DNA of 23,285 nt from Candidatus Sumerlaeales bacterium (GCA_038243585.1 JBBSQY010000049.1:1-23285); one strand, 5' to 3'; counted from the first letter of the stretch, positions 3,449 through 22,174 are shown. The notes: a model not told the origin generated them from the sequence alone. Translations and numbers: made by a program.

Positions 3449-3621
3449 TTGAACAACACCTCAGGGGAGTGGACCGTTTTGGTGGCCGAGTAGACTCACG
3501 AGCGCTACAGTGCAGCGGTTGATCAAGAATTAAATGCAGGGTTATTGCGGATGAGGCGCAACATATTGAAAATGACAAACTTCTTACGTGGCGCTTTTAA
3601 GAGATGTCACCACTATGCCTA

Positions 3622-3942
3622 TTAAACTTCCCATACTTCAAAGGCGAAATAAGGATTGCCTGAAGTGTCGAAAGTTGATTCGCTCGTGCGGTAAATAGGC
3701 TGGTTTAATTTGGTGCGTTCCAAGCTTAAATCTGCTCGGATTGCGTCTGCTACATCGGCTAGTTCCAAAAGGGTATCGGCAGGTTTTACTGTGCCTGGAC
3801 GCAACGCAATTGTGATCCGTGCGCCGTCCTCTGTTCGCCGCGCTTCCACTACGACAGCCCATTCGCACTTCTGATTGGATTGCCGCGCTACACCGTTGGC
3901 TAACATCCGCACATGGCTCAATACCTTGTCTGTCATTCCCAT
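3622..3942 (-). CDS. Hypothetical protein (106 aa)
   Basis: Fills the gap upstream of the symporter on the same strand and has globular-looking composition. No family recognised. Confidence 0.55.
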   Translation of the reverse strand: MGMTDKVLSHVRMLANGVARQSNQKCEWAVVVEARRTEDGARITIALRPGTVKPADTLLELADVADAIRADLSLERTKLNQPIYRTSESTFDTSGNPYFAFEVWEV

Positions 3943-3958
3943 GGATGATGCAGAAACC

Positions 3959-3978
3959 TGAACAATGTCAAATGTTCA
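3959..3978. promoter_or_regulatory. Operator-like inverted repeat TGAACA-N8-TGTTCA enclosing a minus-strand TTGACA
   Basis: TGAACA (3959-3964) and TGTTCA (3973-3978) flank TGTCAA (3966-3971), which reads TTGACA on the minus strand, just upstream of the 106-aa ORF. Confidence 0.35.
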
Positions 3979-4149
3979 AAGATCACGCATTGTCTCTGGA
4001 ATTACCTAAAAGGGCAGAGTCGATATTAACGGCCGTATTGCTGATTATATTAAGTTTATAGCCAGCTTGCTTCGCTGTGGCATTGTTACTGCGTTATTAT
4101 TAAGCTCAAACACGAACCGGACAATCTGAGTATATCGGAGGCAATCACT

Positions 4150-4500
4150 ATGAACATTAAAATCTTGATCCCTGCCCTTGCCATAGCCATCGGCACCATG
4201 GGCGTCTCACCAGTCGACGTAATCGCAAAGCCGAAAAAAAATAAAAAAGCTTATAATAAAAAGGCTTATAAGGAAAGTCAAAAGTATCACAAAAATCATT
4301 ACAAACAATCCCACAATCACGGCCATTATAAAGACGTTAAAATTAAATATGAGAGGCCGGATTACGACAGAGAAAGCTATGGTATCTATTCCACTCCAGG
4401 CGGTGGCCTTGGCTTCTACTACTCTGAAAGCGAAGGCCCTGGCTATGGCTATCCCAATGGCTATGGCTATCCGTATGGATACGGATCTAGATATTACTAA
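4150..4500 (+). CDS. Hypothetical exported protein, Lys/His-rich middle and Gly/Tyr-rich tail
   Basis: GGAGG ribosome-binding site before the ATG; signal-peptide-like N-terminus MNIKILIPALAIAIG; terminator downstream. Confidence 0.8.
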   Translation: MNIKILIPALAIAIGTMGVSPVDVIAKPKKNKKAYNKKAYKESQKYHKNHYKQSHNHGHYKDVKIKYERPDYDRESYGIYSTPGGGLGFYYSESEGPGYGYPNGYGYPYGYGSRYY

Positions 4501-4572
4501 CTAATATCTGGTTACGAACAAAGATCATGCTTTTTTAGCACCGGTAATGGTATAAAGTGGTTTTCTGAAAAT

Positions 4573-4606
4573 GGTTTCGGGCCTAAACACCCGAAACCCT
4601 TTTTTT
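4573..4606 (+). terminator. Intrinsic terminator
   Basis: GGTTTCGGG-cctaaaca-CCCGAAACC followed by C and a run of 7 T. Confidence 0.75.
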
Positions 4607-4611
4607 GCCAA

Positions 4612-5392
4612 GGCAATGGAGCGTAGCGTAATGTGTACAATTCTGCCGGGGCGCTTATACGCAGAGGCAGCCAGTTGCCAACCCCGTTTCTTACTACTAA
4701 CCGGGACGCTCCCTGGCGATAGAGCCGCTCCAGTAAGGAATCATCAGCGGTCCTGCTCCAATTTGAGGTGTAAGCATGAGCTGTGTCCGCTATGGGTGTG
4801 GCCTGCTAGAGTAATAGGAATTCCCATCGCCGCAGCGGGTCAAATGCATGGGGATGGCGGGCCACCAGTATGCTGAAGGCTTCCGGGTTGATAGAATCTC
4901 GCATTAGGCGAGGTTTTTTCCGCTCCGGCATCATCAGAGTGATCACGCTGTGCTTCTGTAGCGTCCCATCGCAAGCCACGCATCTGAACATCGCGGCCCC
5001 GCATGCTTACACTCGCGAAATCATTAATCAGCAATGCAAGGCCCGCATCTTTTATGCATGCGCCGCACTGCATCGATGGCTCAACGCAGATCGCCGCAAA
5101 GATTTTTTCCCTATATGGCAAGTTCAGCAACCGCGATCAGGGCTGTGACTATAGGGATTATTAATAGGCGCCAGATATACGCCATGCCGAGTGTAATTGG
5201 CGGCGGCCCGACTTTTAGTTGTGCCCCACGAAACGACATCATCCAAAGAAAGTGGGACAGCATTAATAGGAAGAACGCTGTGATTAGACCACGCCACCTG
5301 GCTTTTTGGGGGAATGCTCCGGTGCGCCACCACGCCCATAAAAACCACGCAACATCAAGCAAGGGATCGGCCAATTATATAAACCTGATCAT
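4612..5392 (-). pseudogene. Degraded membrane-anchored YkuE/YaeI-type metallophosphoesterase
   Basis: Joining frames gives MIRFI*LADPLLDVAWFLWAWW (transmembrane region)...IKDAGLALLINDFASVSMRGRDVQMRGLRW.../PEAFSILVARHPHAFD/AAAMGIPITLAGHTHSG/QLMLTPQIGAGPLMIPYWS/LYRQGASRLVVRNGVGNWLPLRISAPAE/VHITLR. There are at least five frame changes plus in-frame stops, and the DxH, GD and GNH motifs were not found. Confidence 0.85.
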
Positions 5393-5591
5393 AGCAGCAG
5401 GTACAATCCTGCATGTGGAGTTGTATTAAAAAGCACTGTTACTATCCCAATTCTATTTCGACCAGCGATAGCGATCGCGGCAACAAACCAAAATTTTCTT
5501 TGGAAGGTAGTTGATTCCTCTTGATGGTCTTAAACTTATAAGGTTTAAAGTGGAAGTATTGCACCATTATTTTACAAGGATTGTTTCATCT

Positions 5592-6038
5592 ATGTTTAAG
5601 AAGATTGTTCCGGTCGCCATGCTAATCGGTCTCGCCGCAAGCGCCTCTGCCCAGTTCCCTAACGACGTTGGGTCGGAAATAGCCAGTGACTTTACCAGCT
5701 ATAAAGCCAGTAAAAATGGTGCTGTTAAGGTTCAGTTTACTTCAATCGCCACCTATTTTACGCCGAGCGTTACCGACCCGAAGCAGATTTTGAAATCGAA
5801 AGCTTCTGGCACAATCCGGTTCTTTGTCTCTTCTAATAAGACTTTGTCTGACGATGATAGACTTCTTTCGTCTAAAAATCTAAAGCTAAAGGCATTTAGG
5901 CCAAAGTTTATAAAAGCGAAAGCCAACCTGACTGCTGAGGACAAGGGGCGCTATTTATTGTCGGTGGTCGACAGCCCTCAGGATCAGTACGCAGCCAACA
6001 ATGTGGATTCTTCCTGGATCCCTTTCGACGCGTTTTAA
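5592..6038 (+). CDS. Secreted hypothetical protein, CARDB/Ig-like domain
   Basis: Start moved to ATG 5592 (AAGGA upstream; signal peptide MFKKIVPVAMLIGLAASASA). IRFFVSSNKTLSDDDRLL...GRYLLSVVD...ANN resembles the CARDB pattern. Confidence 0.75.
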   Translation: MFKKIVPVAMLIGLAASASAQFPNDVGSEIASDFTSYKASKNGAVKVQFTSIATYFTPSVTDPKQILKSKASGTIRFFVSSNKTLSDDDRLLSSKNLKLKAFRPKFIKAKANLTAEDKGRYLLSVVDSPQDQYAANNVDSSWIPFDAF

Positions 6039-6056
6039 AAAAAAACTTTTATTGTC

Positions 6057-6101
6057 AGCCCCGGGAAAACTCGAAAGAGTTTCCCGGGGCTTATTTTATT
6101 T
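6057..6101. terminator. Intrinsic terminator between convergent genes, possibly bidirectional
   Basis: AGCCCCGGGAAAACTC-GAAA-GAGTTTCCCGGGGCT (one bulged A) followed by TATTTTATTT. Confidence 0.8.
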
Positions 6102-6102
6102 G

Positions 6103-7539
6103 TTACCGCGCTCCCACAGGACGTAAGCCAGAGCCTTTTGCACCAGTCAAAGAGTCGCCCAGCTCTTTGCGGGCTTCTTCAATGTATCCCTGCAGCCGTT
6201 TGGTAATCTTTGGATGATCGCGCATCACGTTTTTTTGTTCGCCCGGATCAGTCTCCACATTATAGAGTGCAGCAGGAATAGTTACAGCGGCCAGTTCTCC
6301 TGCAGGATCTTTCCGGTACACGTCTTCATTGCGCAGGTTGTTCTCCACGCGTAGTTTCCATGGGCCGCTTCTTACGCCGTGTAGCTGATTCCCGAAATAG
6401 TAAAAGAACTTTTCCCTGGGCGAGTCGAGAGCAGGACTTTGGAGCAGCGCGGTAATGTCGACGCCGTCAATGGTGGGGGACGTAGGCATATCAGCGCCGG
6501 CCAAGGCCGCGAACGTGGGCAGAATATCCATATTTGAAGCAAGCTGCCTGCTGACGGTTCCAGCGGGAATGGTGTCCGGCCAACGCATAATGCAGGGGAC
6601 CCGCATGCCGCCGTCGTAGGTTGTTCCTTTGCCGGCGCGGAGCGGCGTGGCCGATCCACCCTGTTCGCCGCGAATCAGCCAAGGGCCGTTGTCTGAGAAA
6701 AACATGACCAGCGTGCGGTCGTCAATACCCAGTTCCTTTACCGTATCCAGTATCTGGCCGACACTCCAGTCGAGCTCCTGCACGGCATCGCCATAGGGGC
6801 CTCGTGGCGACTTTCCTTTAAATTGGGGAGAGGCGCCCAGTGGCGTGTGTGGCATTACATGGGCCAGATAAAGGAAAAATGGTTTGTCTTTTTGTTCGCG
6901 AATATAGGAGACAGCTTCCGTGGTCAGGCGCTGAGTAATCAGGTCGTTGTCAGGTTGCTCTGGAAGGCGCTCCGTTCCGCGCAGGTAGTAAAACGGTTTC
7001 ATGTCGTTGCTGTAGGGCACGCCGAACAGGAAATCGAATCCGTGATTTATCGGGTTAAATTTATCAGCGTCACCCAAGTGCCACTTGCCCACCATCCCGG
7101 TGGAGTATCCGGCGATTTTGAGAATTTCCGGAAGAGTATTTTCCGCGGGATTCAGTCCGAACGGGGAATTGGGGTGAACTACCTGGCCGGGAGAATAGCG
7201 TCCGTTTACGTTGGCGAGATTGTCTCCGAATCCAACCCGTGCCGGATAGGATCCAGTAAGCAATGCCGCGCGGGATGGGGTGCAACTGGCGGCGACGTAG
7301 AAATCGGTGAAGCGAGCCCCCTGCTCCGCCATCTTATCCAGCCGGGGAGTTTTAATATTAGGCGAACCAAAGCAGCCAAGATCGTTGTATCCTAGGTCAT
7401 CCGCCAGAATGATGATAAAGTTGGGCTTCGTGGTGGTGGAATCGTCCGCGATTGAATATGCACCAGTTGACATCGCGACGGTGGCAAAGGTCGCGGTGAC
7501 GGCAATCAGGCGCGGCAGGACAAGTTTGAGATCCGGCAT
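6103..7539 (-). CDS. Formylglycine-dependent sulfatase (arylsulfatase A-like), exported
   Basis: Motifs PNFIIILADDLGY, CTPSRAALLTG (CxPxR), GYSTGMVGKWHLG, SDNG and GKGTTYDGGMRVP; signal-like N-terminus. Confidence 0.95.
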   Translation of the reverse strand: MPDLKLVLPRLIAVTATFATVAMSTGAYSIADDSTTTKPNFIIILADDLGYNDLGCFGSPNIKTPRLDKMAEQGARFTDFYVAASCTPSRAALLTGSYPARVGFGDNLANVNGRYSPGQVVHPNSPFGLNPAENTLPEILKIAGYSTGMVGKWHLGDADKFNPINHGFDFLFGVPYSNDMKPFYYLRGTERLPEQPDNDLITQRLTTEAVSYIREQKDKPFFLYLAHVMPHTPLGASPQFKGKSPRGPYGDAVQELDWSVGQILDTVKELGIDDRTLVMFFSDNGPWLIRGEQGGSATPLRAGKGTTYDGGMRVPCIMRWPDTIPAGTVSRQLASNMDILPTFAALAGADMPTSPTIDGVDITALLQSPALDSPREKFFYYFGNQLHGVRSGPWKLRVENNLRNEDVYRKDPAGELAAVTIPAALYNVETDPGEQKNVMRDHPKITKRLQGYIEEARKELGDSLTGAKGSGLRPVGAR

Positions 7540-7634
7540 TTCTTTTCCCTTATCTATCTAATGTGCGGGAATGGCGCCCGCGGTGCCGCGTTTATACGAA
7601 AGTCGCATTGTAATACTATGCGATGAAATGCGGA

Positions 7635-10600
7635 TCAGACTGCCGCAGTAGGGTAGAGCGTCTCTAACATCCGATTTACGCTCTCTTCCGTGACCGGCAA
7701 TTTGCGTAAATCGCGCATGGCAATTACCTGGTTGAGGGCACCTTTCAGATCTCGAACGTTGGTATCTATTTTTTCGGACAGAAGTCTTGAAACCCAGGGT
7801 TCAAGGGCCAAGTTGTTTTCTTCCACTTCGCGGTTTAAAATCGCCAGGCGGGTTTCCAGATCAGGAGATGCGATATCAACTATTACCCCGGCTCCAAAGC
7901 GGCTGCGGAGACGGCTCTCCAAGTGGGAGATTTCCGAAGGGGGGCGGTCGCTAGTGATCACGATTTGACGCTTCGCCTGAAACAAGCTGTTAAAGATGTG
8001 GAAGAATTCTTCCTGCGCACGTTCTTTTCCGGCCAGGAACTGCACATCATCTATGATAAACAGATCGAGGCTGCGATAGCGTGTGCGAAACTGTTGAACG
8101 TTATTGTTTTTGATCGCCTCCACCAGTTCATCGGTGAAGTCTTCGCTGTTGGTGTAGATGATCTGGGCCTTAGGGTCATGGCCGAGGAGGTAGTTAGCTA
8201 TGGCGTTGCAAAGGTGGGTTTTTCCAAGGCCTACGTTGGCGTAGAGGAAGAGCGGGTTATAAGTACGGGCAGGGGACCGGGCAATGGCCAGCGCGGTGGC
8301 ATGGGCGAAATCGTTGTTGGCTCCGACCACGAACTGGTCAAAAGTGTACTCGGGTACAAGTTGCAGGGTCGGACGTTGCGCTGGGGACGCGTCTGAGGTG
8401 GCGCTCGTGGAGGGGGCGTTCATTGCCAGCTCTACCAAAATTTGCAGTTCCTTCATGGCAAGGTCGGTCTGGCCGAGGGCGGTCAGTAGTTCCGCGCGAC
8501 GTTTCCGAGGAGGCAGTCGCCCTGGTTCCATCTTCAGAATTTCGTCGTAAACCGCCAGTGCGTCTTCTGTATGCCCTAATTCGGCATGGCGCGCTGCAAT
8601 TATTTCCAGTTGATCGGCAGCCTGCTCGCTCCGTCCGGCGGCTATTAAGTTGTCGGCCATCCTGCGACCGATATCCATGCGGGTTGGGTCGATTTCCAGC
8701 GCTTCCCGCTCGGCAGCCATAGCTTCTACGTCCATCTGCTGATTGCGGTATGCATCAGCAAGGCCCAGTAGCTCTTCCACAGCGGCGGCGGAGTTTCCCT
8801 CGGCGCGGTGAATTTGTGCCAACTGGCGGTGGGCGTCGGAATTGCCGGGGTTTGCGGCTAGCACCTGTTGTAGCAGATCTATGCCGGCCTGACTGTTACC
8901 CTCTAAGTGATGGATTCCTGCAATTCGAAGAAGCTGAATCTCCCCCTTCGCGTTTTCACCCAAATGCAAATGCAGGTCTGCGAGCTGCCTGCGGGCGTTC
9001 ATGTTGCGAGGTTCAATTTTAAGAACTTCATTGAGCATTGCTTCAGCGTCGAGAAAGCGTTCCTGCAAGCGATAGACGTCTGCCAACGCCAGGCGCTTCT
9101 CGGCCACCTCAGCGTCTCTACCGGCTTCTTCCAGGAATTGCAGCTGTTCTTTTTTGAGGGCTAAATTGTCTGGGTCAAGAGTGACAATCTGGTCAAAAAC
9201 CAGGGCGGCATCACTGTTTTTGGCTGCCGCACGAAGGATCGTAACCAGTTTTCGGCCCCATGTGATTGCCTGGTTTGGCTGGCGACCCACCCGGTGCAGC
9301 TCATAGATATCCCGGTTTAAATCCAGATTTTCGGGCACTCGCTCAACGGCTTTCAGCATCGTCTTTCGGGCTGCTTCTGATTTCCCTCCCTTGTGCTGCA
9401 GAGAGGCCAGACGACGGGCGGCGACAACGCCGGCCTGCATATCGCCGCGGTTAAATTCTGCGTTCATCAGCATATGCAGGGCTTCTTCGTCATCGGTAAA
9501 TCGCACAAGTACATCGCGAAGCACCCGGGCTTCCCGGTCGCCATCGCTGGCCCCTCGGTACACCCGTGCCAGATGCAGACGCCATTGGCGGGCTGGCTGA
9601 TAATTTTCCTGCTTATCGCTAGCATTAATAATCCGGAGTATCGCTGCGCTATCGTTAGGGGACTCTTTCAGGTACTCTTCCAATATGCCAGTCGCGTCGC
9701 CATACTGGCCTTGCTGCTCATGAAAAGCGGCTATCCGCAGCAGAGCCTGCTGCGTCTTTTCGGTGTTTCCGAATTCCCGATAGTTTTGAAGTTGTCGCAC
9801 AAGAGCGGGCAGGTCCTGGGGTTCCAGATCGTTCGCTTGCTCTATAATTTCGTCTGCCTCGCCCCCGCGATTCAGGCGCTTCAATTCTTCTGCCAGTTGA
9901 CGGAGTCGCGCCACAGCGGCCGGCTTGTCATCAAACCGCAGATACAACTCTACCAGGTCGCGCGCGAGGTCGGTATCTTGAGGGATAAGGTTCGAGTAGC
10001 GTTCGGCCTCGAGGATAGCATCATCCAAGCGGTCGTTGGCGGCCATATTTTCACATGCTGTTATGACAGTGTCTCTCACCTGCGGATAATCCTTGTTACG
10101 GAGGTGAGCCCGGGCCATCTTGAAAAGTAGAGAATTTGGTGGTTCGGCTAGTAGTTCAGCAGCACGTTGCAGGTAAGAGATGGCGCGGCGTCCGGTGGTG
10201 GCTTCCAGATGATGGTCGGCGATGGACTCCAAGGCTGTGACAGCGGCTTCTCGGGCGGAGGTATCTCCTGCGAGGGCCAGTCCCTCCAAGGCCGTGGCGC
10301 GCAGGTCCAGACCATCTTCAGAGTTCTGATCTTCGGCGGGCATTGCGTCGGCCGTTTCGAGCGCGTCGGCGTACGCTTTTTGCGCAAGTTGTGCGCGAAT
10401 CAGGCGCCGACGGGTTTCCCGGCTCTCCGCGCCCTTGTTTTCCTGTTCCTGGATGTGGATAAGGGTTCGAAGCACCGGCACGTGCTGGGGCTGCCACACC
10501 AGTACGCGGTCTATAATTTCCTGCGCCTCCTCAGCGCGGCCCTGGCCATACAGTAATCTAGCAAGGCCAGCTTCCAGATCCAGCGCTTCTTTGGCACGGC

Positions 10601-11747
10601 CGTGATTATTGTATTCATTGATCAGCGCATGGAGAGCCGCTTCATCTTCTGGCGCGACGACAATAAATTTTTCAAGAGCATGGATGGCGAATTCATGCTC
10701 GTTGTGCTCCCGAAGGTGTTGGGCAGATTGAATGACCTGATGGGAAATGACCGGCGTAGGCGGGATGGCAGCGGCGGTTTCGAGAAACCGGCGATGGCTG
10801 TCAGTGCGTTCCGGATCGACCTCAATAGCCATGAGGCAAAACTCGGCGGCGGAGTCGAGATTGTGCTCCGTTGCAGCTTTTTCTGCCAGTCCCTGTAGCA
10901 AGTTCACGGCATCGTCAGACCTATCGGCCTGCGTCAATACTCTTACTATGTGGGGCGTTACGTCAATGACGTCTATATGGTTTTCACGGCTGATTGTTGC
11001 AGCACGCTGATAAGCGTGAAGCGCAGCTTCGAGGTCGTTGGCGCCCTCACAGGCGTCTCCGCCGCCCATAAATTCCATTACGGCGGATTCCGCGTCGCCG
11101 TTTGCATATAGCAGTTCGGCGCAAGCAAAGCGGGCTTCCGGACTGTCTGGGTCCAGCTCTGTCCATTCCTGAATCAGATCCGGCACTTCCGCCGCCCGAC
11201 CTTCCGCGATTTTCAGCCGGCATACAGTTACAAGTTTCTCCGCACGGGCCTCTGTTTCGCCGCGACCTTCGAAGATTTTCAGCAGCCCATGATGCGCATC
11301 GGAACACTGCGGGTCGATATCCAGAATCGTCCTATAGCGAGCTTCGGCGTCGTCGAAGGCTTTAGACGCCAAATCCTGATCAGCTACGGCAAGTTCTGCC
11401 TTCACAAGTTCATGGTTTACCGGTAATTCTACGGGCAATGATTGATCGTGAACTATGGCGCGAATGGCGGAATCTACATCGACGCTGCGTGCCTGGGCAA
11501 ACAGGCTGACGAGGTTGCCCCCCTGGCTGCCTGTGCACTGGGTGTATTGGCAGCGAAAACTGCGGGTTTCCCGGTCAATCACCAGATTTCGAAAAAGCCC
11601 CTCGCGATGGATAGGGCAGAAGCCCTTGGCCGTTTTCGGGTTTTCCTGATATTTCTCGAAACGATAATCAATAGACTGCATCAGCAGGCGGATATCTAGC
11701 CGGCTGTTTACATCGTCTATAATTTCTTGTGGGAAGAAGTTGCTCAT
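7635..11747 (-). CDS. Multidomain protein: CHC2 (primase-type) zinc finger, TPR repeats and DnaA-type AAA+ domain III, without domain IV
   Basis: N-terminal C44-PI-H47...C66-x4-C71-x4-GGN; recurring TPR-like helix pairs ending in IDP/LDP/LEP turns; C-terminal YTFDQFVVG, YNPLFLYANVGLGKTHL, FIIDDVQFLAGKERAQEEFFHIFN, TSDRPP, RLRSRF and NVRDLKGAL. Confidence 0.92.
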   Translation of the reverse strand: MSNFFPQEIIDDVNSRLDIRLLMQSIDYRFEKYQENPKTAKGFCPIHREGLFRNLVIDRETRSFRCQYTQCTGSQGGNLVSLFAQARSVDVDSAIRAIVHDQSLPVELPVNHELVKAELAVADQDLASKAFDDAEARYRTILDIDPQCSDAHHGLLKIFEGRGETEARAEKLVTVCRLKIAEGRAAEVPDLIQEWTELDPDSPEARFACAELLYANGDAESAVMEFMGGGDACEGANDLEAALHAYQRAATISRENHIDVIDVTPHIVRVLTQADRSDDAVNLLQGLAEKAATEHNLDSAAEFCLMAIEVDPERTDSHRRFLETAAAIPPTPVISHQVIQSAQHLREHNEHEFAIHALEKFIVVAPEDEAALHALINEYNNHGRAKEALDLEAGLARLLYGQGRAEEAQEIIDRVLVWQPQHVPVLRTLIHIQEQENKGAESRETRRRLIRAQLAQKAYADALETADAMPAEDQNSEDGLDLRATALEGLALAGDTSAREAAVTALESIADHHLEATTGRRAISYLQRAAELLAEPPNSLLFKMARAHLRNKDYPQVRDTVITACENMAANDRLDDAILEAERYSNLIPQDTDLARDLVELYLRFDDKPAAVARLRQLAEELKRLNRGGEADEIIEQANDLEPQDLPALVRQLQNYREFGNTEKTQQALLRIAAFHEQQGQYGDATGILEEYLKESPNDSAAILRIINASDKQENYQPARQWRLHLARVYRGASDGDREARVLRDVLVRFTDDEEALHMLMNAEFNRGDMQAGVVAARRLASLQHKGGKSEAARKTMLKAVERVPENLDLNRDIYELHRVGRQPNQAITWGRKLVTILRAAAKNSDAALVFDQIVTLDPDNLALKKEQLQFLEEAGRDAEVAEKRLALADVYRLQERFLDAEAMLNEVLKIEPRNMNARRQLADLHLHLGENAKGEIQLLRIAGIHHLEGNSQAGIDLLQQVLAANPGNSDAHRQLAQIHRAEGNSAAAVEELLGLADAYRNQQMDVEAMAAEREALEIDPTRMDIGRRMADNLIAAGRSEQAADQLEIIAARHAELGHTEDALAVYDEILKMEPGRLPPRKRRAELLTALGQTDLAMKELQILVELAMNAPSTSATSDASPAQRPTLQLVPEYTFDQFVVGANNDFAHATALAIARSPARTYNPLFLYANVGLGKTHLCNAIANYLLGHDPKAQIIYTNSEDFTDELVEAIKNNNVQQFRTRYRSLDLFIIDDVQFLAGKERAQEEFFHIFNSLFQAKRQIVITSDRPPSEISHLESRLRSRFGAGVIVDIASPDLETRLAILNREVEENNLALEPWVSRLLSEKIDTNVRDLKGALNQVIAMRDLRKLPVTEESVNRMLETLYPTAAV

Positions 11748-12153
11748 ATGGATACAGTTATATAATTACTTACGGTCTCGTATCAGTGCATTCAAGGATA
11801 AAATGGAGCGCAGTCAGCAAGCAGGTTTTTGAGAGGATTCCGTTGTGGGAGGCGGCTGAGCGGAGGTTTGCAGTTTTCGGGGGTTTTTCTGCGCTCATGC
11901 CCGTGGGATCTGGCTGCGCGCGGTGTTTGCTGCGCATTTACCCGTTTTTTTATTTGAGGGCTTTTCGAACTGAAACAAGGCGTTCAACTAACAGGAGGGG
12001 CGCGGTGCTCCTGAACAGGTTTTTGTTAGTTTGTTCGGGATGTGTAATTATAGGTTTGCGGCTGCATTTGGTGGCTGTATGTAAGAAAGACGCTAGGAGC
12101 AGCGGGACTGACTGTTAATTCCCCTATGGGACCTTAACCCGTTTCCAGCGACG

Positions 12154-14750: not shown

Positions 14751-17564
14751 CTACTTTATGAATTCGGCGCTTTGAAGATACCATGTGCGGGCTTCGTCAA
14801 TAATTTCCGTATTTAGAATTTGTATTTCCAGCCTTGCACGATGTCCCCGTACGTATTGCGATATCGGAAACGTGTAAGTGTCTATGCTTACTGATTGCCA
14901 GTAGCCCTCAAACAGCTTGTGGCGGTTGTTGTCTTCTGTGATCAGACTGATGCGCAATCTAGGAAATATATTGCCGGCGACACGCGAGCGAGCCGTAACG
15001 CTCAAGGTGGTTGCGCCTTCAGGGACCAAAATCTCTTTAGATGATACCGGCGCCTGGACAATGAGCACCTGGTCCCGGTAAACGTTTACTGTTGGGAAAT
15101 CTTCAGTCGTTAATCTGAGCAGCGTTTCCGGTTCTGAAGTTGCCTGGGAATCGTATGCCGGAAAAATGACCTGTTCGTTTTTAAGCTCAAAAACCGTAGA
15201 GGTGGTGGATACTGCTGTCTTTATGCCGTCGCCCTGACGGATTATTTCGATGCAGGGGTCGCCCAGGAATGTGAAGGAATTATAGAGAGCCTGATTCTGA
15301 CCCGCTGGAATATGGGCCTGGTGGGCGCGCAGGCTTGCTTCGCCCAAGGTTTCTACCGTCGGGTCGAAGTAGCTTTCGAACAGGTGGCGATTGAAGGCGT
15401 GACTGTCCTGAACCGTGGCTTTCCATGATGCGCCGATTACGGCAATGGCTCCGCCGTCTGGCTGAATGACAAGAGCTTCGCCAATGCTTTTCGGCTGATC
15501 AAACGCGGTGGTGTAACAGCTTGCGCAAACAACGACAGGATAGTGGTTCCTGTTTGTCAATCCGGCAACGTCCGCCGGTGTGAACAGGTCCTTCTGTCGC
15601 GCAAAATCCGTGGGCCCAACGCGCCATACGAGGCTGCCGCCATGGCCTACATAGTATAGGAGTTGCACACCCCCACTGATCTCTTTTTGCAGGTTGGAGA
15701 CTTCTCTGCCGACACTTTCTGCTTCGGGGAAGAGATAGGTGACGGTGGACAGGTCGTCCTGATAGGCGTTTCCTATTTCGCTGACATAAGACTGAAAGCT
15801 TTTTTCTACGCTGGAGATGAGCAGGCCTTTGTCGTCGGCGCCTGCGCGAAGGGTTTCGTGAGCTATTACTTTGCGGACATACTCCATCCCCTCGGCGTCG
15901 CTGTTAACGGGGATGCGGCCCACGGCAATATCGGGGCGAAATTCATTTGCGATGCTGCCATACCAGTTGTCGTCCTGATAGCCGCCAGACCAGGTCACTC
16001 CGGGGCGATACACCCAGTGAATGGGGATGAGGACGTCGAGCTGTTGCGAATCATTGAAGGAGCGGGCTTCTCGGTAATCAAAATAGGCGTCGCCTATAAG
16101 GACAATGTGCGAAAGACTGGTAGCGACATCTGCGACGCTCATAATATAATCCCGCAGTGCCGCATCGCTAATAAATCCATGGTTGTGCTGATCAAATATG
16201 GCACGAACGGAGACCGATTTGATGTTCCAGCCGCGTTCCTGGCGATACGTGGTGTAGGTGTCGGCGGTTTGCTTAAGGCTCGGATGGTAGACGACAAGGG
16301 CTTCCATATCGGGTGGAATGACGGGCAGCGGAGACGCGGTAAGCGCTTGAATGTGGTCGACCTTCATTCGAGAAAACGGAGCGGCAGCGGTGCAGGTGGT
16401 CAACGCGGGGCTGTTGTCAATGCGGGTCGATGTTTGATCCGGAGACAGCTGCCAGACGGTGCCGTTGCCGGGATCAAATATGGATGCGCCGGCGGGCAGA
16501 TTTGATATTTCGAGGGTGGATGTGGAGGTTTTGGACAGGTTGGATTTGTCGGGAAGGAGATCATTGTTAAAGGTGTAAAGTTCAGCGCCGCCGGCGTCAT
16601 ATTGGCTGGGATAACGCGCTTCGATGGAATCCAGGGAAATGCTGTCTACGACGGCTTTGCGATCTGCGGGCGCGTTGAAGCTGAATCGTGAGGGCTTATC
16701 TACAACCTGTTCTGGCGGGATTTCGAGGTGAGACGTGTGCATGATGGTCCCGTCAAACCGGATTTCTCCCACCGGTTTCATGTCGTAGAGAAAAGAAAAC
16801 AAATGCGACGGTTTCAGGTTCGCCGCATTGGTGCGGCCCAAGGTTTTTACGGCGAGCTCAACCGGCAGGCCAAGAGATTTGTCAAAACCTGGGAATGACA
16901 GGTTGGTTTTAACAGTCGCTTCAGGTGCCATATTGGCGCGAAATTCCATCCAGTAGAAGTTATCCGTAACATCGGGGGGAAGAGTTGAGAATGAGTAGAG
17001 GTAATTTGATTCCCAGTGACGCCACTGCCAGAAATGCTGTTGGGGCTGATTCGTCTTTGTATCCGTGAGCGGTGCGGGTTTTAACTTATATTGCAGCGGT
17101 CCACTTTCGCTTGCGATATCCTCGGCGCTTTTGTCCCAACCTAAGAAGTAGACGTTCGTTTTGTTCTCCGGCATAAACCAGGAACCTGACGTTGTCGCGT
17201 CTTCGCCGAGAAGTTCGCTGCGCGGGGCGTCGCCGACGAATTCAATGGCGTCATCCGAATCGAATGACGGGTCTTGCCCGTCTATTACCAGGATTGGCAC
17301 TGGCTGACCGGCGCAGGTTAGAGTCAGTTTTTCCGGGGCCACATATGAGAGGCGCACTCCGGCCTTTGCCAGCTCTGCGCCGGTTATCCGGTAAACGCCG
17401 GGATATCGCAAATCGATTCTAACGCCGGTTGGGGACTCGGCTGGTGATAATGCCGTGGTAAAGCTTGTTACGGCGGAACCGGCACCGCAGAAGGATGCTA
17501 ATAAGGCGGGAGCTAATCCGAAAATTGCCTTAAGCACGCTACTCGTTGGAAAGAGCTTTTGCAA
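14751..17564 (-). CDS. Peptidase C25 family cysteine protease (gingipain/PorU-like)
   Basis: N-terminal GVYRITGAEL...VPILV.DG...FDSDDAIEFVG...NVYFL; motifs HIVLIGDA, DIAVGRIPV, YYVGHGG (catalytic His), ASCYTTAFD (catalytic Cys), GGAIAVIG and FLGDP. The start is TTG 17564 or GTG 17537. Confidence 0.9.
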   Translation of the reverse strand: MQKLFPTSSVLKAIFGLAPALLASFCGAGSAVTSFTTALSPAESPTGVRIDLRYPGVYRITGAELAKAGVRLSYVAPEKLTLTCAGQPVPILVIDGQDPSFDSDDAIEFVGDAPRSELLGEDATTSGSWFMPENKTNVYFLGWDKSAEDIASESGPLQYKLKPAPLTDTKTNQPQQHFWQWRHWESNYLYSFSTLPPDVTDNFYWMEFRANMAPEATVKTNLSFPGFDKSLGLPVELAVKTLGRTNAANLKPSHLFSFLYDMKPVGEIRFDGTIMHTSHLEIPPEQVVDKPSRFSFNAPADRKAVVDSISLDSIEARYPSQYDAGGAELYTFNNDLLPDKSNLSKTSTSTLEISNLPAGASIFDPGNGTVWQLSPDQTSTRIDNSPALTTCTAAAPFSRMKVDHIQALTASPLPVIPPDMEALVVYHPSLKQTADTYTTYRQERGWNIKSVSVRAIFDQHNHGFISDAALRDYIMSVADVATSLSHIVLIGDAYFDYREARSFNDSQQLDVLIPIHWVYRPGVTWSGGYQDDNWYGSIANEFRPDIAVGRIPVNSDAEGMEYVRKVIAHETLRAGADDKGLLISSVEKSFQSYVSEIGNAYQDDLSTVTYLFPEAESVGREVSNLQKEISGGVQLLYYVGHGGSLVWRVGPTDFARQKDLFTPADVAGLTNRNHYPVVVCASCYTTAFDQPKSIGEALVIQPDGGAIAVIGASWKATVQDSHAFNRHLFESYFDPTVETLGEASLRAHQAHIPAGQNQALYNSFTFLGDPCIEIIRQGDGIKTAVSTTSTVFELKNEQVIFPAYDSQATSEPETLLRLTTEDFPTVNVYRDQVLIVQAPVSSKEILVPEGATTLSVTARSRVAGNIFPRLRISLITEDNNRHKLFEGYWQSVSIDTYTFPISQYVRGHRARLEIQILNTEIIDEARTWYLQSAEFIK

Positions 17565-18937: not shown

Positions 18938-21900
18938 ATGGCGAAGAAGTACGTTTACTTCTTTGGAGACGGCAAGAGCGAAGGCCGCGGCAACCAGAAA
19001 GAACTGCTCGGCGGCAAGGGCGCAAACCTTTGTGAAATGGCTCGCCTCGGCATACCTGTTCCGGCGGGTTTTGTCATCAATACGGAAGTCTGCACAGACT
19101 ACTATAAGAGCGGCCGCAAGCTGCCATCAGGCCTGGATAAGGAACTGCGCGCCGCCATGGCGCGGACAGAAAAAGTCATGGGCGGCAAATTCGGCGACGC
19201 CAAGAATCCCCTTCTGGTTTCAGTGCGCTCCGGCGCACGCATTTCCATGCCTGGCATGATGGAAACCGTCTTGAATCTCGGTTTAAATGAAAAGACTTTG
19301 CAGGGCATCATCGCCCGCAGCGGCAACGAGCGTTTCGGCTGGGATCTTTACCGCCGGTTCGTGCATATGTATAGCGCCGTGGTTATGGAAATCGACAACG
19401 AACTTTTCGGCCATCGCATGGACGAGATGAAGGCCGATCGCGGTACCAAGAGCGATATGGACCTGACCGCCGACGATTTTAAAGAACTGACCAACGACTA
19501 CAAAAAGATCTACCGCGATAAAGTTGGTTCTGATTTCCCGGAAGACCCATGGACCCAGCTTCGTGCCGCCGTGGGTGCCGTGTTTAATTCATGGATGAAG
19601 AAGAAGGCCGTCGACTACCGCAAAATTTATAACGTGCCTGCCACGTGGGGCACGGCCGTCAATGTGCAATCCATGGTGTACGGCAACATGGGCGACGACT
19701 GCGCCACGGGTGTGGCTTTTACCCGTGACCCTGGAAATGGTGACCAGAAATTTTACGGTGAATGGCTGAAAAACGCCCAAGGCGAAGACGTGGTGGCCGG
19801 TATCCGTACTCCGCAGCCCATCAATGAAGAAACTCGCAACGCAGGCAACGAGACCACGACGCTTCAGGAAGAAATGCCTAAAGCGTATGCTGACTTGGTT
19901 CGCATCTATAAGCGCCTGGAAAATCATTACACAGACATGCAGGACATCGAGTTCACCATTCAGAACCATAAGCTTTGGATGTTGCAGACCCGTAACGGCA
20001 AGCGCACCGCCTCTGCGGCCATCAAAATTGCAGTAGACCTGGTCAAGGAAGGATTGATCGACAAGCGGACCGCCATCAAGCGTGTTGACCCGGACCAACT
20101 CAATGAACTCCTTCACCCTATGTTCAACCCTCAAGCCAAGAAAACCCGTATCGCCAAAGGCATCAGCGCCAGCCCCGGCGCAGCGGTCGGCAAGGCGGTC
20201 TTCAACGCTGAAGACGCCGTGGCCGCCAAAGCTCGCGGCGAGTCCGTGATTCTTGTGCGCCTGGAAACAAGCCCGGAAGACGTGGCGGGTATGTATGCCG
20301 CCGCTGGAATCCTGACGGCTCGCGGCGGCAAGACCAGCCACGCGGCAGTGGTTGCCCGCGGCATGGGCAAGAGCTGCGTGTGCGGCGCCGGCGACCTGAG
20401 CATCAGCGAAAAAGCCAAGAAGTTCACCGTGCAGGTTAACGAAGAAACCATAACCATCAACGAAGGCGACTGGGTTTCCATCGACGGCACGAAGGGCGAG
20501 GTTTACGTTGGTAAGGTCGACCTGATGGACAGCGAAATCCTTCAGGCGCTTAAGGGCGACATTGATCCGAAGCAGAGCATAATCTACGGTTATTACGGCC
20601 AGTTCATGAAATGGGCCAACGAGCTTCGCCGGTTGCGTGTTCGCACCAATGCCGACACCCCGGAAGACAGCCGCGTGGCGCGTCAGTTCGGTGCCGAAGG
20701 CATCGGGCTTTGCCGCACTGAGCACATGTTTTTTGACACCGAGCGCATCTTGTATGTCCGCCAGATGATCGTGGCGGAAAACGAAGCGGCGCGGCGCAAG
20801 TCGCTCGCGAAACTTATCAAGTACCAACGCGAAGATTTCACCGGGCTTTTCAAGGTAATGGACGGCCTGCCGGTCACGATCCGCCTGCTTGATCCGCCGC
20901 TCCACGAGTTCCTGCCCCACAGCAGCGAGGACATTGATCAGCTTGCGAAGGATCTGGGAATTGAACCAGAGGTTCTTCATCGCAAGGTTGAACAGCTTCA
21001 CGAAAGCAACCCGATGCTGGGTCATCGCGGTTGTCGCCTGGGAATCGTGTTTCCGGAAATCACGGAAATGCAGGCGCGGGCTATTTTTGAAGCCGCCGCC
21101 GATCTTACTAAGAAGAAAATACGAGTGATTCCGGAAGTCATGGTGCCGCTGATCGGCACGTCTGAAGAATTTAAAAATCAGCGTGATATCATCGTGGGCG
21201 TTGCTAATGAAGTGATGAAGGAAAAAGGGATTCGTTTCAAATATCTGGTCGGAACAATGATCGAAGTTCCCCGGGCCGCGTTGACCGCGGGCGCTATCGC
21301 GGAAGATGCGGAATTCTTCAGTTTTGGCACAAACGATCTCACCCAGATGACCTACGGTTACAGCCGTGACGATGCCGGAAAATTTCTTCCTTATTACGTT
21401 GAAAATAATATTCTGCCGGGTGATCCGTTTCAGAGTCTTGATCAGGTGGGCGTCGGTCGTCTCATGGAAATTGCAGTTGAGACCGGACGCCAGGCCCGCC
21501 CTGGACTGAAGTGTGGTATCTGTGGTGAGCATGGCGGCGACCCAAGATCAGTAGAATTCTGTCACAAAACGAATCTGGACTACGTCTCCTGCAGCCCCTA
21601 CAGAGTGCCTATTGCTATACTTGCCGCAGCTCAGGCAAGTGTCAACGATGAGGGTAGTGGAATGGCCGCGGTTTCCCCTCGGGGCGCCGCGAGCAAAAAG
21701 AAGGAGGTAGTCGTGAAAACAGCAGCGACAGCAAAGAAGTCTTCCTCGAAGGCCTCTGCTCCGAAGAAAGCGGCGCCAGCCAAAACAGTCGTAGCGGCCA
21801 AATCAGCCGCCCCGGCAAAAAAAGCGGCGACCGCCACAAAGGCAGCTCCGGCTAAAAAAGCGGCTCCTGTCAAAAAGGCAGCGACCGCCACGGCGACTCC

Positions 21901-22174
21901 TGCGAAAAAAGCAGCGCCTGCTAAAACGGCTCCTGCCTCAAAGACCGCGCCGGCTAAAAAAGCGGCTCCGTCCAAACCGGCAGCTCCCGCCAAAAAAGCA
22001 ACAACTGCTTCAAAGCCTGCTGCAAAATCTGCGGCAGCGAAGCCAGCAGCACCGGCTAAAAAAGCCGCCCCTGCCAAATCGGCAGCACCAGCTAAAAAAG
22101 CCGCTCCGGCTCAAAAAGCTGCTGCACCTGCCGCCAAAGCTCCGGCTAAAAAGCCAGCCGCAAAAAAGAAATAA
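18938..22174 (+). CDS. ppdK: Pyruvate, phosphate dikinase with C-terminal histone-H1-like tail
   Basis: GGAGG ribosome-binding site; motifs LLGGKGANL, LLVSVRSGA, AQGEDVVAGIRTP, GGKTSHAAVVARG (phospho-His), GLCRTEHMFF, FSFGTNDLTQ, GICGEHGGDP and YVSCSPYRVP. The core ends near aa 902. Confidence 0.97.
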   Translation: MAKKYVYFFGDGKSEGRGNQKELLGGKGANLCEMARLGIPVPAGFVINTEVCTDYYKSGRKLPSGLDKELRAAMARTEKVMGGKFGDAKNPLLVSVRSGARISMPGMMETVLNLGLNEKTLQGIIARSGNERFGWDLYRRFVHMYSAVVMEIDNELFGHRMDEMKADRGTKSDMDLTADDFKELTNDYKKIYRDKVGSDFPEDPWTQLRAAVGAVFNSWMKKKAVDYRKIYNVPATWGTAVNVQSMVYGNMGDDCATGVAFTRDPGNGDQKFYGEWLKNAQGEDVVAGIRTPQPINEETRNAGNETTTLQEEMPKAYADLVRIYKRLENHYTDMQDIEFTIQNHKLWMLQTRNGKRTASAAIKIAVDLVKEGLIDKRTAIKRVDPDQLNELLHPMFNPQAKKTRIAKGISASPGAAVGKAVFNAEDAVAAKARGESVILVRLETSPEDVAGMYAAAGILTARGGKTSHAAVVARGMGKSCVCGAGDLSISEKAKKFTVQVNEETITINEGDWVSIDGTKGEVYVGKVDLMDSEILQALKGDIDPKQSIIYGYYGQFMKWANELRRLRVRTNADTPEDSRVARQFGAEGIGLCRTEHMFFDTERILYVRQMIVAENEAARRKSLAKLIKYQREDFTGLFKVMDGLPVTIRLLDPPLHEFLPHSSEDIDQLAKDLGIEPEVLHRKVEQLHESNPMLGHRGCRLGIVFPEITEMQARAIFEAAADLTKKKIRVIPEVMVPLIGTSEEFKNQRDIIVGVANEVMKEKGIRFKYLVGTMIEVPRAALTAGAIAEDAEFFSFGTNDLTQMTYGYSRDDAGKFLPYYVENNILPGDPFQSLDQVGVGRLMEIAVETGRQARPGLKCGICGEHGGDPRSVEFCHKTNLDYVSCSPYRVPIAILAAAQASVNDEGSGMAAVSPRGAASKKKEVVVKTAATAKKSSSKASAPKKAAPAKTVVAAKSAAPAKKAATATKAAPAKKAAPVKKAATATATPAKKAAPAKTAPASKTAPAKKAAPSKPAAPAKKATTASKPAAKSAAAKPAAPAKKAAPAKSAAPAKKAAPAQKAAAPAAKAPAKKPAAKKK
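21713..22174 (+). repeat. Lys/Ala/Pro low-complexity repeat region (8 x PAKK); possible nested in-frame gene
   Basis: No Asp or Glu in aa 924-1078. AAGGAGGT at 21701-21708 precedes the in-frame GTG at 21713. Confidence 0.75.

Follow-up and report, generated by a model that had tools for sequence, protein, structure and literature searches.

The reading frame and its three modules

The locus raised the question of what a single protein could do that joins a zinc ribbon of the DnaG-primase type, a long scaffold of TPR-like repeats and the ATPase domain of DnaA. The window, the whole stretch of 23,285 nt that was analysed, had been read from the sequence alone as encoding such a protein. The open reading frame (P0001) lies on the minus strand at 7635..11747, starts with ATG and specifies 1370 aa plus the stop codon without interruption, exactly as had been described. 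All three modules named in the sequence-only reading were recovered by Pfam together with AlphaFold2 and Foldseek, and Pfam scans also confirmed that DnaA_N, Bac_DnaA_C and TOPRIM are absent. Homologues aligning over the full length are 27-70% identical.

A chimeric origin of the frame had to be considered. In Logan contigs of X1, the probable source run assembled a second time, positions 7400-9357 and 9352-11818 are covered with 0 and 1 differences, and both domain junctions are bridged. The independent run X3 contains a relative about 88-90% identical, of which the pieces at 8344-8621 and 10891-11632 cross the same junctions. No single Logan contig of X1 holds the whole gene, the break being at 9352-9357, and nothing else could be brought forward for an artefact (assembly chimera, pseudogene or chance ORF), an explanation refuted by the contigs from both runs and by full-length homologues in dozens of separately assembled genomes. 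ORF 7635-11747 encodes a real protein.

The DnaA-type ATPase core

Residues 1128-1350 (7698..8366, minus strand) constitute DnaA domain III, that is, the AAA+ core and lid. Pfam Bac_DnaA (PF00308) matched this domain with an E-value of 3.2e-66 and the whole protein with 5.6e-65 at aa 1132-1291, and the PDB chains 8btg_A and 8bv3_A of B. subtilis DnaA were found with 4e-79. When the last 261 aa were scanned alone, Bac_DnaA and generic P-loop families were obtained. NCBIfam TIGR00362 aligned aa 1111-1365 to profile positions 84-339 of 437, corresponding to domain III only, and its score of 327.8 bits stayed below the equivalog cut-off of 343.9. Aligned to full-length 8btg_A, the protein reaches no further than chain residue 347 of 446. 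While the identity of the domain had been recognised correctly, its proposed extent (aa ~1130-1370) had not: it ends near aa 1350 and is followed by a tail of 20 aa (aa 1351-1370; 7638..7697, minus strand), which terminates where the connector to domain IV of DnaA would begin. Bac_DnaA_C (PF08299) was not detected in the last 261 aa at E <= 1, nor was DnaA_N (PF11638) in aa 1-161 at E <= 10. In the same scan, DnaA_N, Bac_DnaA and Bac_DnaA_C were all found in the genome's own DnaA, the first with 9.4e-19 and the last with 8.6e-24.

The motifs of an initiator ATPase are all present on the minus strand: Walker A (aa 1170-1177 with K1176 and T1177; 8217..8240), Walker B (aa 1230-1234 with D1233 and D1234; 8046..8060), Box VII (aa 1279-1283; 7899..7913) with the arginine finger R1283, equivalent to B. 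subtilis R264 in the 8btg_A alignment, and the sensor II arginine R1332 (7752..7754). K1176, D1233, D1234, R1279, R1283 and R1332 are each conserved in all 91 AAA+ domains of the family. The domain is thus of the Bac_DnaA type with Walker A and B, arginine finger and sensor II intact.

Contacts of B. subtilis DnaA to single-stranded DNA (I190, I193, R202, K222 and E228, with N187 contacting adenine) were taken from PMC10721633. The family has K1241 for K222 in 84 of 91 domains, R1221 for R202 in 88, E1247 for E228 in all 91, I or V at 1209 for I190 in 89, and I1212 for I193 in 90. The N187 equivalent is N in 31/31 Sumerlaeota DnaAs and relaxed in the fusion family (S 33, G 17, T 14, A 11 of 91), and the equivalent of T225 is A or S in all 91 domains. 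With these two changes, ssDNA may be read differently from the way DnaA reads it. Arginines at 1221 and 1243 are shared by the fusion family and the DnaAs of Sumerlaeota (30/31 and 23/31) but rare in those of other phyla (7/68 and 16/68). Four positions are class-specific, T1151, A1244, E1307 and K1335 in the fusion family versus A, T, K and E in DnaA. Judged from these alignments, the core has kept all checked catalytic and arginine-finger residues and most ssDNA-contact residues.

Zinc-ribbon head and TPR-like solenoid

The N-terminal head, aa 1-108 (11424..11747, minus strand), is predicted to fold as a zinc ribbon of the DnaG-primase type. By sequence, Pfam Zn_ribbon_DnaG (PF01807) gave an E-value of 0.0034 and 17.6 bits, below the cut-off of 24.9; several homologues have a precomputed match to this family. 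It was the fold that identified the CHC2 zinc-binding domain. An AlphaFold2 model of aa 1-125 (pLDDT 87.1, pTM 0.78) retrieved 1d0q_A from the PDB with Foldseek (E 5.6e-4, prob 1.00, TM 0.73 on target, rmsd 2.6 over 106 columns), followed by 2au3 (E 0.011, prob 1.00), both of them DnaG zinc-binding domains; the third match had an E-value of 0.69. Putative zinc ligands are C44, H47, C66 and C71 (C-x2-H ... C-x4-C; 11535..11618, minus strand). The complete C-H-C-C set is present in 59 of 74 aligned members, while three of the four ligands, H47, C66 and C71, are missing in the other 15; C44 is invariant.

Between head and ATPase, a helical solenoid of about 18 three-helix repeats occupies aa 112-1110 (8418..11414, minus strand), followed by a linker rich in Ala, Ser, Pro and Thr, as read from the translation (aa 1111-1127; 8367..8417, minus strand). 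Many Pfam TPR families matched aa ~126-1115, for example TPR_19 in nine stretches with E 1.4e-40. In an AlphaFold2 model of aa 1-480 (pLDDT 90.9), everything after residue 112 is an all-helical solenoid, with helices at aa 112-474 and three of them per 53-55 residues. Alignment of the profile to itself by hhalign gave shifts of 54, 108-110, 166-168 and 220 residues. The roughly 1000 aa of TPR-like repeats noted earlier are therefore present, but with a period of about 54 aa instead of the 34 aa of a classical TPR. Foldseek matches of the solenoid model were generic TPR superhelices.

Distribution and evolution

Homologues with the same domain order occur throughout the phylum Sumerlaeota. Matches to aa 1-1100 were detected in 72 of 75 genomes, including 41 of the 43 of high quality. 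Exactly two strong PF00308 copies are present in 61 of the 75, never three, and DnaA domain IV was detected in 68. Carriers in the phylum also possess canonical dnaA, a point on which the sequence-only reading had asked for a check. For the window's genome, this holds for a complete dnaG as well; three PF00308 matches were obtained there, to DnaA, the fusion protein and a DnaC/IstB-like protein, and Hda was not detected by this search. Eight genomes contain a canonical DnaA ATPase and no second copy, four of them at least 90% complete (G064, G009, G013, G014); in these eight the fusion protein may be dispensable, or its gene unassembled.

In the phylogeny, the fusion family forms one clade of its own with a support of 100/100. 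Identity between the fusion domain and domain III of DnaA from the same genome is 44.6-50.7% (nine genomes). Compared across 36 genome pairs, the fusion ATPase domain is on average 60.6% identical and DnaA domain III 67.6%; by this measure, the former evolves nearly as slowly as DnaA. Longer forms of the family arose by duplication of a 381-aa block. The fusion protein is a DnaA paralogue that occurs throughout the phylum in single copy and is inherited vertically.

A possible role at the opened origin

With ATP bound, the C-terminal domain would be expected to form DnaA-type head-to-tail oligomers on ssDNA. Since the protein should be unable to find DnaA boxes itself, its most likely partner is the oligomer of the genome's own DnaA at the opened origin, which it would join or cap by contacts between AAA+ domains. 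A large protein-binding scaffold would thereby be positioned at the initiation complex, and the role would be that of an adaptor or regulator of initiation. To this reading, a DnaA paralogue that oligomerises with ATP on ssDNA, probably together with DnaA, and carries a scaffold, we assign a probability of roughly 40%. The independent alternative initiator suggested previously is unlikely, because the DNA-box-binding domain is absent and canonical DnaA coexists.

A heterodimer of the fusion domain and domain III of the genome's DnaA, predicted with two ATP and two Mg, scored 0.48 versus 0.00 for the best control. Of 157 solved complexes, 116 reach the mark applied, as do 2 of 215 mismatches; among those passing, scores of 0.60 or less were seen for only 18 of the 157 complexes and for both mismatches. 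Runs agreed in at least 94% of the contacts, with a partner pLDDT of at least 85. The pass may reflect structures already familiar to the predictor, since DnaA oligomers have been solved, and the prediction weakly supports a contact with DnaA domain III.

Paralogues, gene neighbourhood and other explanations

The head is not confined to the fusion protein. A profile of the family's N-terminus detected, in the window's genome, a 2948-aa protein consisting of TPR throughout (E 5.3e-30), a 531-aa protein (8.7e-21) and DnaG (4.1e-6); the zinc ribbon and first repeats thus also top two TPR-only paralogues. In total, 277 protein clusters bear this head at E <= 1e-10, falling into length classes near 1360, 1750, 2150 and 2600-3600 aa in addition to shorter ones. 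These paralogues, together with the 15 members lacking three ligands, weaken the proposal that replication has borrowed the zinc ribbon as a second, dedicated reader of ssDNA. Immediately upstream of the giant paralogue, on the same strand, lies a gene for an 832-aa SPOR-domain protein (PF05036, E 5.9e-18), and such a neighbour is found directly upstream in 8 of 11 loci of other genomes (tblastn).

From the shared head, its many length classes, the SPOR pairing and the dispensable zinc ligands, another role could be envisaged, in which the protein serves for ATP-switched assembly within a Sumerlaeota-specific zinc-ribbon/TPR scaffold system at the envelope or division site, its DnaA-derived domain mainly oligomerising the scaffold or tethering DNA to it, without control of initiation. 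This appears doubtful. The SPOR pairing belongs to a paralogue, and no SPOR gene is present in the window. Furthermore, the ssDNA-contact residues are kept at 92-100%, although a module that did no more than oligomerise could do without them, and the domain evolves nearly as slowly as DnaA, whereas other fusions of DnaA domain III (P0094-P0098) sit on long branches, with 0.5-2.6 changes per column. A further reading is a two-component DnaA system of Sumerlaeota, in which the box-blind paralogue would co-polymerise with the origin-reading DnaA on the unwound strand and, by way of its 1000-aa solenoid and its zinc-ribbon head, link origin opening to a family of giant zinc-ribbon/TPR scaffolds peculiar to the phylum, one of them genetically paired with a SPOR cell-wall-binding protein; we regard such a system as unlikely.

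The surroundings of the fusion gene do not point to replication. Its neighbours in the window are genes for a sulfatase and a SucD-like CoA ligase, and over 12 fusion loci only nadC and panB (3-4 loci) and a gene for a SHOCT protein (3 loci) recur. Sites resembling DnaA boxes are not enriched in the window (6 versus 3.64 expected, with 6 reached in 15 of 100 shuffles) and are lacking in the 455-bp upstream region. No genes for repair, recombination or uptake recur next to the fusion gene in the window and the 12 loci, which speaks against an independent ssDNA-filament ATPase acting without DnaA in another DNA transaction, for instance when forks are restarted, DNA is repaired or incoming ssDNA is processed. 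Such an enzyme would fit the intact oligomerisation and ssDNA-contact residues; the missing domain IV, which leaves it untied to DnaA boxes; the relaxed adenine-contact position, suggesting looser sequence specificity; and the fusion of domain III to non-replication partners elsewhere (PF05157 + PF00308, P0095-P0097). The lineage-specific residues of the ssDNA pocket, common to the family and the phylum's own DnaA, argue against it as well, and we consider it improbable.

Finally, the protein might act as a negative regulator like Hda, its arginine finger triggering hydrolysis of DnaA-bound ATP or the protein capping oligomers, with the scaffold supplying the activating cue as the clamp does for Hda. 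The absence of domain IV as in Hda, the invariant R1283, the failure to detect Hda in the window's genome and the predicted contact with DnaA domain III, with the caveats given above, agree with this. Nevertheless, it is quite improbable: the Hda model TIGR03420 reached 88.5 bits versus a cut-off of 194.8, and the ssDNA-binding apparatus, for which Hda has no need, is fully conserved. It would in any case be a special case of the adaptor or regulator explanation and not a separate kind.

Naming and significance

A literature search yielded no published description of the fusion protein. In public databases the family goes by generic names, DnaA/Hda-family or TPR protein, and one closed genome annotates a member as 'chromosomal replication initiator protein DnaA'; the label "unrecognised" holds for the literature and not for the databases. 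New here are the head on two TPR-only paralogues, the loss of ligands in 15 of 74 members and the origin of longer forms by duplication of the 381-aa block. Annotation as DnaA misleads origin prediction. Here an entire phylum has retained, on a giant scaffold, another DnaA motor that has hardly diverged. Co-assembly with DnaA would make the protein a new class of initiation factor and a natural experiment on what a DnaA ATPase/ssDNA module does once freed from origin recognition; without it, the DnaA module would be re-usable elsewhere with its ssDNA-contact residues retained. A two-component system, if true, would connect initiation physically to the cell envelope or the cell cycle in a way not known before. 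As the protein can be produced recombinantly, its biochemistry is accessible without a cultured host, Sumerlaeota being uncultured.

Comparison with known systems

DnaA is nearly universal and has a very stable domain plan; relatives without the DNA-binding domain, such as Hda and DnaC, are to our knowledge short and strongly diverged. The fusion protein shares with DnaA the complete AAA+ core and lid and the initiator-specific motif, and besides the B. subtilis chains matches 2z4r (2e-56) and 2hcb/1l8q (4e-47). It differs by the lack of domains I and II, which bind helicase and regulators, and of the helix-turn-helix domain IV, which reads DnaA boxes, by forming its own clade and by a TIGR00362 score below the cut-off. 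Head and solenoid take the place of the missing domains.

Hda, a clamp-dependent protein of ~230-250 aa, uses an arginine finger and a contact between AAA+ domains to act on DnaA. Both are DnaA-family AAA+ proteins without the box-binding domain, but the fusion protein has kept its ssDNA-binding residues, and 1370 aa do not make a short single-domain protein. Identity with Hda was rejected on this ground, on the TIGR03420 score and on the E-value of 1.7e-9 to the Hda chain 5x06. With the zinc domain of DnaG (PF01807; 1d0q, 2au3), the head shares the fold, by model comparison, and the C-x2-H ... C ... C ligand logic; its second knuckle is C-x4-C, and TOPRIM polymerase and helicase-binding domains are absent among the Pfam families found (the best 25 of 35, the other 10 being weaker than E 0.024). 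The middle of the fusion protein is TPR-like throughout, and membership in the DnaG primases was rejected. An anti-phage defence ATPase was also rejected, PADLOC giving at best mad8 (E 2.4e-4, 18.7 bits) on the P-loop.

Docking of AAA+ domains of the DnaC/DnaI type onto DnaA oligomers is an established idea, and these loaders likewise combine a C-terminal initiator-clade AAA+ domain with an unrelated N-terminal adaptor. A helicase loader is not indicated by the scores (IS21_help_AAA/IstB 57.8 bits versus 200; DnaI PRK08939 31.4 versus 228), and the window's genome has a separate DnaC/IstB-like protein of 237 aa. The other fusions of DnaA domain III, GspE_N/MshEN with a DnaA ATPase (P0095-P0097), resemble the protein in their C-terminal domain III and missing domain IV, but carry PF05157 at the N-terminus and an ATPase that is far more diverged.

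Architecture and integrity of the long-form gene

The long-form gene occupies positions 7635 to 11747 on the minus strand of the window and runs from an ATG start through 1370 codons in a single unbroken frame. In its product, P0001, Pfam assigned residues 1132-1291 to the Bac_DnaA ATPase (E = 5.6e-65), and TPR families covered about residues 126-1115. Of the 437 positions in the NCBIfam DnaA equivalog, 84-339 aligned, with residues 1111-1365; this stretch corresponds to domain III only, and its score of 327.8 bits is under the cut-off of 343.9. Scores of the Hda, IstB and DnaI models of NCBIfam on P0001 were far under their cut-offs. When the last 261 residues were scanned separately, Bac_DnaA was found and Bac_DnaA_C was not; the canonical DnaA of G000, the genome holding the window, was scanned alongside and showed DnaA_N, Bac_DnaA and Bac_DnaA_C. 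The absence of Bac_DnaA_C, which the sequence-only reading had expected, was thus seen directly.

At the N-terminus, the only match of the first 161 residues was to Zn_ribbon_DnaG and was sub-threshold (E = 0.0034, 17.6 bits against a cut-off of 24.9); a C-x2-H ... C-x4-C pattern is present. A structure of residues 1-125 was predicted from an alignment of 26 relatives out of the fetched loci (pLDDT 87.1). Its convincing matches in the PDB were DnaG zinc-binding domains only, 1d0q_A and 2au3 (probability 1.00), the next match having an E-value of 0.69, and the primase-type zinc ribbon proposed before is therefore upheld. In a model of residues 1-480 (pLDDT 90.9), the ribbon is followed by an unbroken helical solenoid, in which every 53-55 residues contain three helices. 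Self-alignment of P0001 yielded shifts of 54, 108-110, 166-168 and 220 residues, consistent with the modelled helix periodicity, and the solenoid of the model matched generic TPR superhelices in the PDB with low TM-scores. The repeats are TPR-like, as had been noted, and can now be described more precisely as about 18 units of 54 residues. Scans, models and self-alignment together bear out three modules in one uninterrupted frame.

The arrangement is not an assembly artefact. Sequencing run X1, which may come from the source sample, was assembled separately; its contigs match 7400-9357 without a difference and 9352-11818 with one, and extend across both domain junctions. Run X3, from a different study, contains a relative about 88-90% identical, again with pieces across both junctions. 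The junctions are spanned, and the long-form frame is a real, ordinary-looking gene for a DnaA-family member of unusual architecture.

No description of this architecture was found in the literature. Searches for DnaA with TPR or a zinc ribbon, DnaA fusions, paralogues and DnaA-like proteins returned nothing relevant, and no paper on DnaA in Sumerlaeota was found. In a term search of a comparative paper on Sumerlaeota (PMC8092238), DnaA, TPR, tetratricopeptide and primase had no occurrences.

The zinc-ribbon head is shared with paralogues

An HMM of the first 112 residues of the long-form family detected four matches among 31,798 six-frame ORFs of G000. Besides P0001 itself, these were a giant all-TPR paralogue of 2948 aa (G000:C3:89591-98488; E = 5.3e-30), a zinc-ribbon/TPR protein of 531 aa (G000:C18:10705-12318; E = 8.7e-21), and DnaG (E = 4.1e-6). 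The giant paralogue and the 531-aa protein share the zinc-ribbon head and the first repeats, the rest consisting of TPR-like repeats only. Sumerlaeota therefore possess several zinc-ribbon/TPR proteins that are paralogues and make up a small family. With a profile of the head, 277 cluster representatives were found at E <= 1e-10 and 2243 at the looser limit of E <= 0.001; in the 150 best of them, the head nearly always starts within the first 32 residues, and once at residue 101. The head is a family trait and not a replication-specific add-on. Its earlier interpretation as a single-stranded-DNA-handling module from a replication protein is weakened, since TPR-only proteins begin with the same head.

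C44, P45, R53 and G77 of the head are invariant in 74 aligned members. In the zinc site (residues 44-71; window 11535-11618), all four C-H-C-C ligands are retained by 59 of these members; H47, C66 and C71 are missing in 15. It seems from this pattern that the fold of the head matters more than the metal. The members without the ligands (P0068, P0071, P0073, P0076-P0078, P0080, P0081, P0085-P0088 and P0091-P0093) conserve the remainder of the domain.

Directly upstream of the giant paralogue and on the same, minus, strand lies a gene for a SPOR-domain protein of 832 aa (G000:C3:98525-101023; L137:126-2624). By tblastn, a SPOR homologue is located directly upstream of the giant paralogue in 8 of 11 loci from other genomes (L140-L150), with the C-terminal 180 residues best conserved (45-59% identity). 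FtsK was considered as another conserved partner and rejected; it is a convergent neighbour in G000, but in 0/11 of the other loci.

Homologues and distribution in Sumerlaeota

From 5.8 billion protein clusters, 103 proteins were retrieved. Of these, P0002-P0093 align to P0001 over most or all of the length (E <= 5e-111), so that the same domain order recurs in homologues. Most are 1353-1440 aa long, and further length classes are found near 1750 and 2150 aa, offset from P0001 by 381 and 760 aa, so that one or two blocks are added. Each 381-aa block consists of seven 54-aa repeats and lies inside the solenoid; longer forms of this kind occur in the taxonomic family of the window itself (P0015, 1749 aa; P0019, 2152 aa; genomes G055-G058, G060 and G066). 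From contigs, 80 loci were kept, one genome per species. Eleven encode long forms; the MAGs of nine carry the label Sumerlaeota, Sumerlaeia or Sumerlaeaceae, and those of two the label 'bacterium'. In the remaining 69, the match is an ordinary dnaA of another phylum, with 41-51% identity that is confined to the ATPase. One cluster is labelled Hydrogenedentota, a label that is doubtful because the same cluster contains AXA36875.1 of Candidatus Sumerlaea chitinivorans, annotated as 'Chromosomal replication initiator protein DnaA'. A word-based search of longer proteins with the 130-aa head gave 12 close relatives only and no new architecture, the best ESM Atlas score was 0.76, with generic TPR and TPR-plus-AAA clusters that serve as leads only, and a PADLOC scan gave a negligible match.

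Among 75 Sumerlaeota genomes, residues 1-1100 of P0001 were matched in 72, including 41 of the 43 of high quality. Two Bac_DnaA copies at E <= 1e-30 are present in 61 genomes, one in 13, none in a single genome that is 66% complete, and three never. Five of the 13 single-copy genomes have the long-frame type only and eight the canonical type only, four of the latter being at least 90% complete. Four of these eight (G013, G014, G018 and G019) belong to family f8, where they represent 4/7 genomes; the remaining ones are G009, G062, G064 and G074. In f8, lineage-specific loss or unassembled repeats could account for the lack of a second copy. In G074, a 1376-aa frame with a zinc-ribbon head runs off the end of a 4395-base contig.

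The sequence-only reading had also raised the question of whether carriers possess canonical dnaA, dnaG and hda. Domain IV was detected in 68/75 genomes, within DnaA-sized frames. In G000 (89.7% complete), the gene for canonical DnaA lies on contig C5 and that for DnaG primase on C18, and a DnaC/IstB-like protein of 237 aa is also encoded; since there was no further Bac_DnaA match, Hda was not detected in this genome. In G021, G026, G027 and G029, several extra, weaker Bac_DnaA_C matches were observed, up to nine in G027. The frames that contain them are about 320-400 aa long and resemble a family of small DnaA-type helix-turn-helix proteins present in multiple copies.

Genomic context

The long-form gene is flanked by a sulfatase gene downstream and a gene for a SucD-like ligase upstream. 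Across 12 loci, synteny is weak: nadC and panB recur in 3-4 of them and a SHOCT protein in 3. No replication-related neighbours were found in the window or these loci, and the context gives no clue to function. DnaA-box-like sites are not enriched near the gene or in the window, in which neither RNA families (Rfam) nor tRNAs were found. Elsewhere in the window, a peptidase C25 (gingipain-type) protein of 937 aa (14751-17564, minus strand; E = 9.7e-66) and a pyruvate phosphate dikinase-like protein of 1078 aa (18938-22174, plus strand) are ordinary annotations. The region 3600-6100 contains five small ORFs (101-175 aa) without Pfam or PHROG match and has a lower G+C content, 0.46-0.49 versus 0.52-0.57 around it.

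Two closed or single-contig genomes, G066 and G069, carry the long-form gene. Measured from dnaA, not from a mapped origin, it lies on the far side in both: on G066:C1 the distance is about 1.34 Mb out of 3.29 Mb, or 0.41 of the circle, and on G069:C1 about 3.11 Mb out of about 6.0 Mb, or about 0.52.

Phylogeny of the ATPase domain

The long-form family formed a single clade in a quick tree of 126 rows (SH-aLRT 99) and in a careful tree of 52 rows (100/100; rows kept: 14/27, 15/31 and 23/68, with the long-branch row L105 left out). Branching inside the family tracks genus and family kinship, a pattern that fits vertical descent. For the quick tree, a constraint uniting the family with Sumerlaeota DnaA raised the likelihood 33 units above that of the free search (p-AU 0.824). 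In the careful tree, the family was sister to Sumerlaeota DnaA in 5% of bootstrap trees, and the sister constraint was as good as the free tree (+0.21, p-AU 0.513), not being rejected by the AU test. The 68 DnaAs from other phyla were picked by similarity to P0001 and are a biased sample. Other DnaA-domain-III fusions from the protein search, P0094-P0098, have much longer branches than the long-form family. In these five long proteins, domain III is terminal or internal and domain IV is missing; divergence of the ATPase is far greater than in the long-form family. PF05157 (GspE_N/MshEN) occurs in three of the five, and P0094 and P0097 have two copies.

The DnaA-type ATPase and its possible function

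The ATPase domain of the long-form family is strikingly similar to that of DnaA. For a residue comparison, 91 domains of the family and 99 of DnaA were aligned. Invariant in family and DnaA alike are K1176 of Walker A, D1233 and D1234 of Walker B, R1279, the arginine finger R1283 and the sensor II R1332. Across nine genomes (36 pairs), mean identity between species is 60.6% for the long-form ATPase domain versus 67.6% for DnaA domain III; compared with DnaA of the same genome, the long-form domain is 44.6-50.7% identical. An ATP switch of a scaffold system is an unlikely alternative to the action on DNA proposed below.

In B. subtilis DnaA, single-stranded origin DNA is held by K222/E223 (phosphates), R202 and E228 (guanine), N187 (adenine), I190 and I193 (PMC10721633). 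Ungapped alignment to PDB DnaA chains places P0001 residues at the B. subtilis number plus 1019. K222 corresponds to K1241 in 84/91 family members, R202 to R1221 in 88, E228 to E1247 in all 91, I190 to I or V at 1209 in 89, and I193 to I1212 in 90. The position of N187 is N in 31/31 Sumerlaeota DnaAs and is relaxed in the family, where S is found in 33, G in 17, T in 14 and A in 11 of the 91. The family shares arginines at 1221 and 1243 with Sumerlaeota DnaA; they are uncommon among the 68 DnaAs of other phyla.

The C-terminal domain may undergo ATP-dependent, DnaA-type oligomerisation on single-stranded DNA. Most plausibly, it would join the oligomer that the genome's own DnaA forms at the opened origin, and the scaffold would thereby be brought there. 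For a heterodimer of the long-form and DnaA domain IIIs with ATP and Mg, a score of 0.48 was predicted versus 0.00 for the best control, with contact agreement of at least 94% and partner pLDDT of at least 85. The mark applied is reached by 116/157 solved complexes and 2/215 mismatches; scores <=0.60 are those of only 18 of the 157 and of both passing mismatches. The prediction weakly supports a long-form/DnaA contact, and the pass could stem from solved DnaA oligomers already known to the predictor. A single-stranded DNA ATPase acting without DnaA is an improbable alternative.

A clean distinction between family and DnaA is seen at four positions only, where T1151, A1244, E1307 and K1335 of the family stand against A, T, K and E, respectively. 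The last two correspond to K288 and E316 of B. subtilis DnaA. Position 1307 (nt 7827-7829) is K in 99% of DnaA and E in 81% of the family, and position 1335 (nt 7743-7745) is E in 100% of DnaA and K in 99% of the family. This reciprocal charge swap relative to DnaA could reflect a compensated lid salt bridge or a changed protomer interface.

In comparison with PDB entries, the ATPase domain of P0001 matched B. subtilis DnaA (8btg_A, 8bv3_A) with E = 4e-79 and Hda with E = 1.7e-9. An Hda-like inactivator is the most doubtful of these three alternatives. The long-form protein is a conserved, box-blind paralogue of DnaA, which coexists with DnaA and has kept the ATP, arginine-finger and single-stranded DNA apparatus intact.
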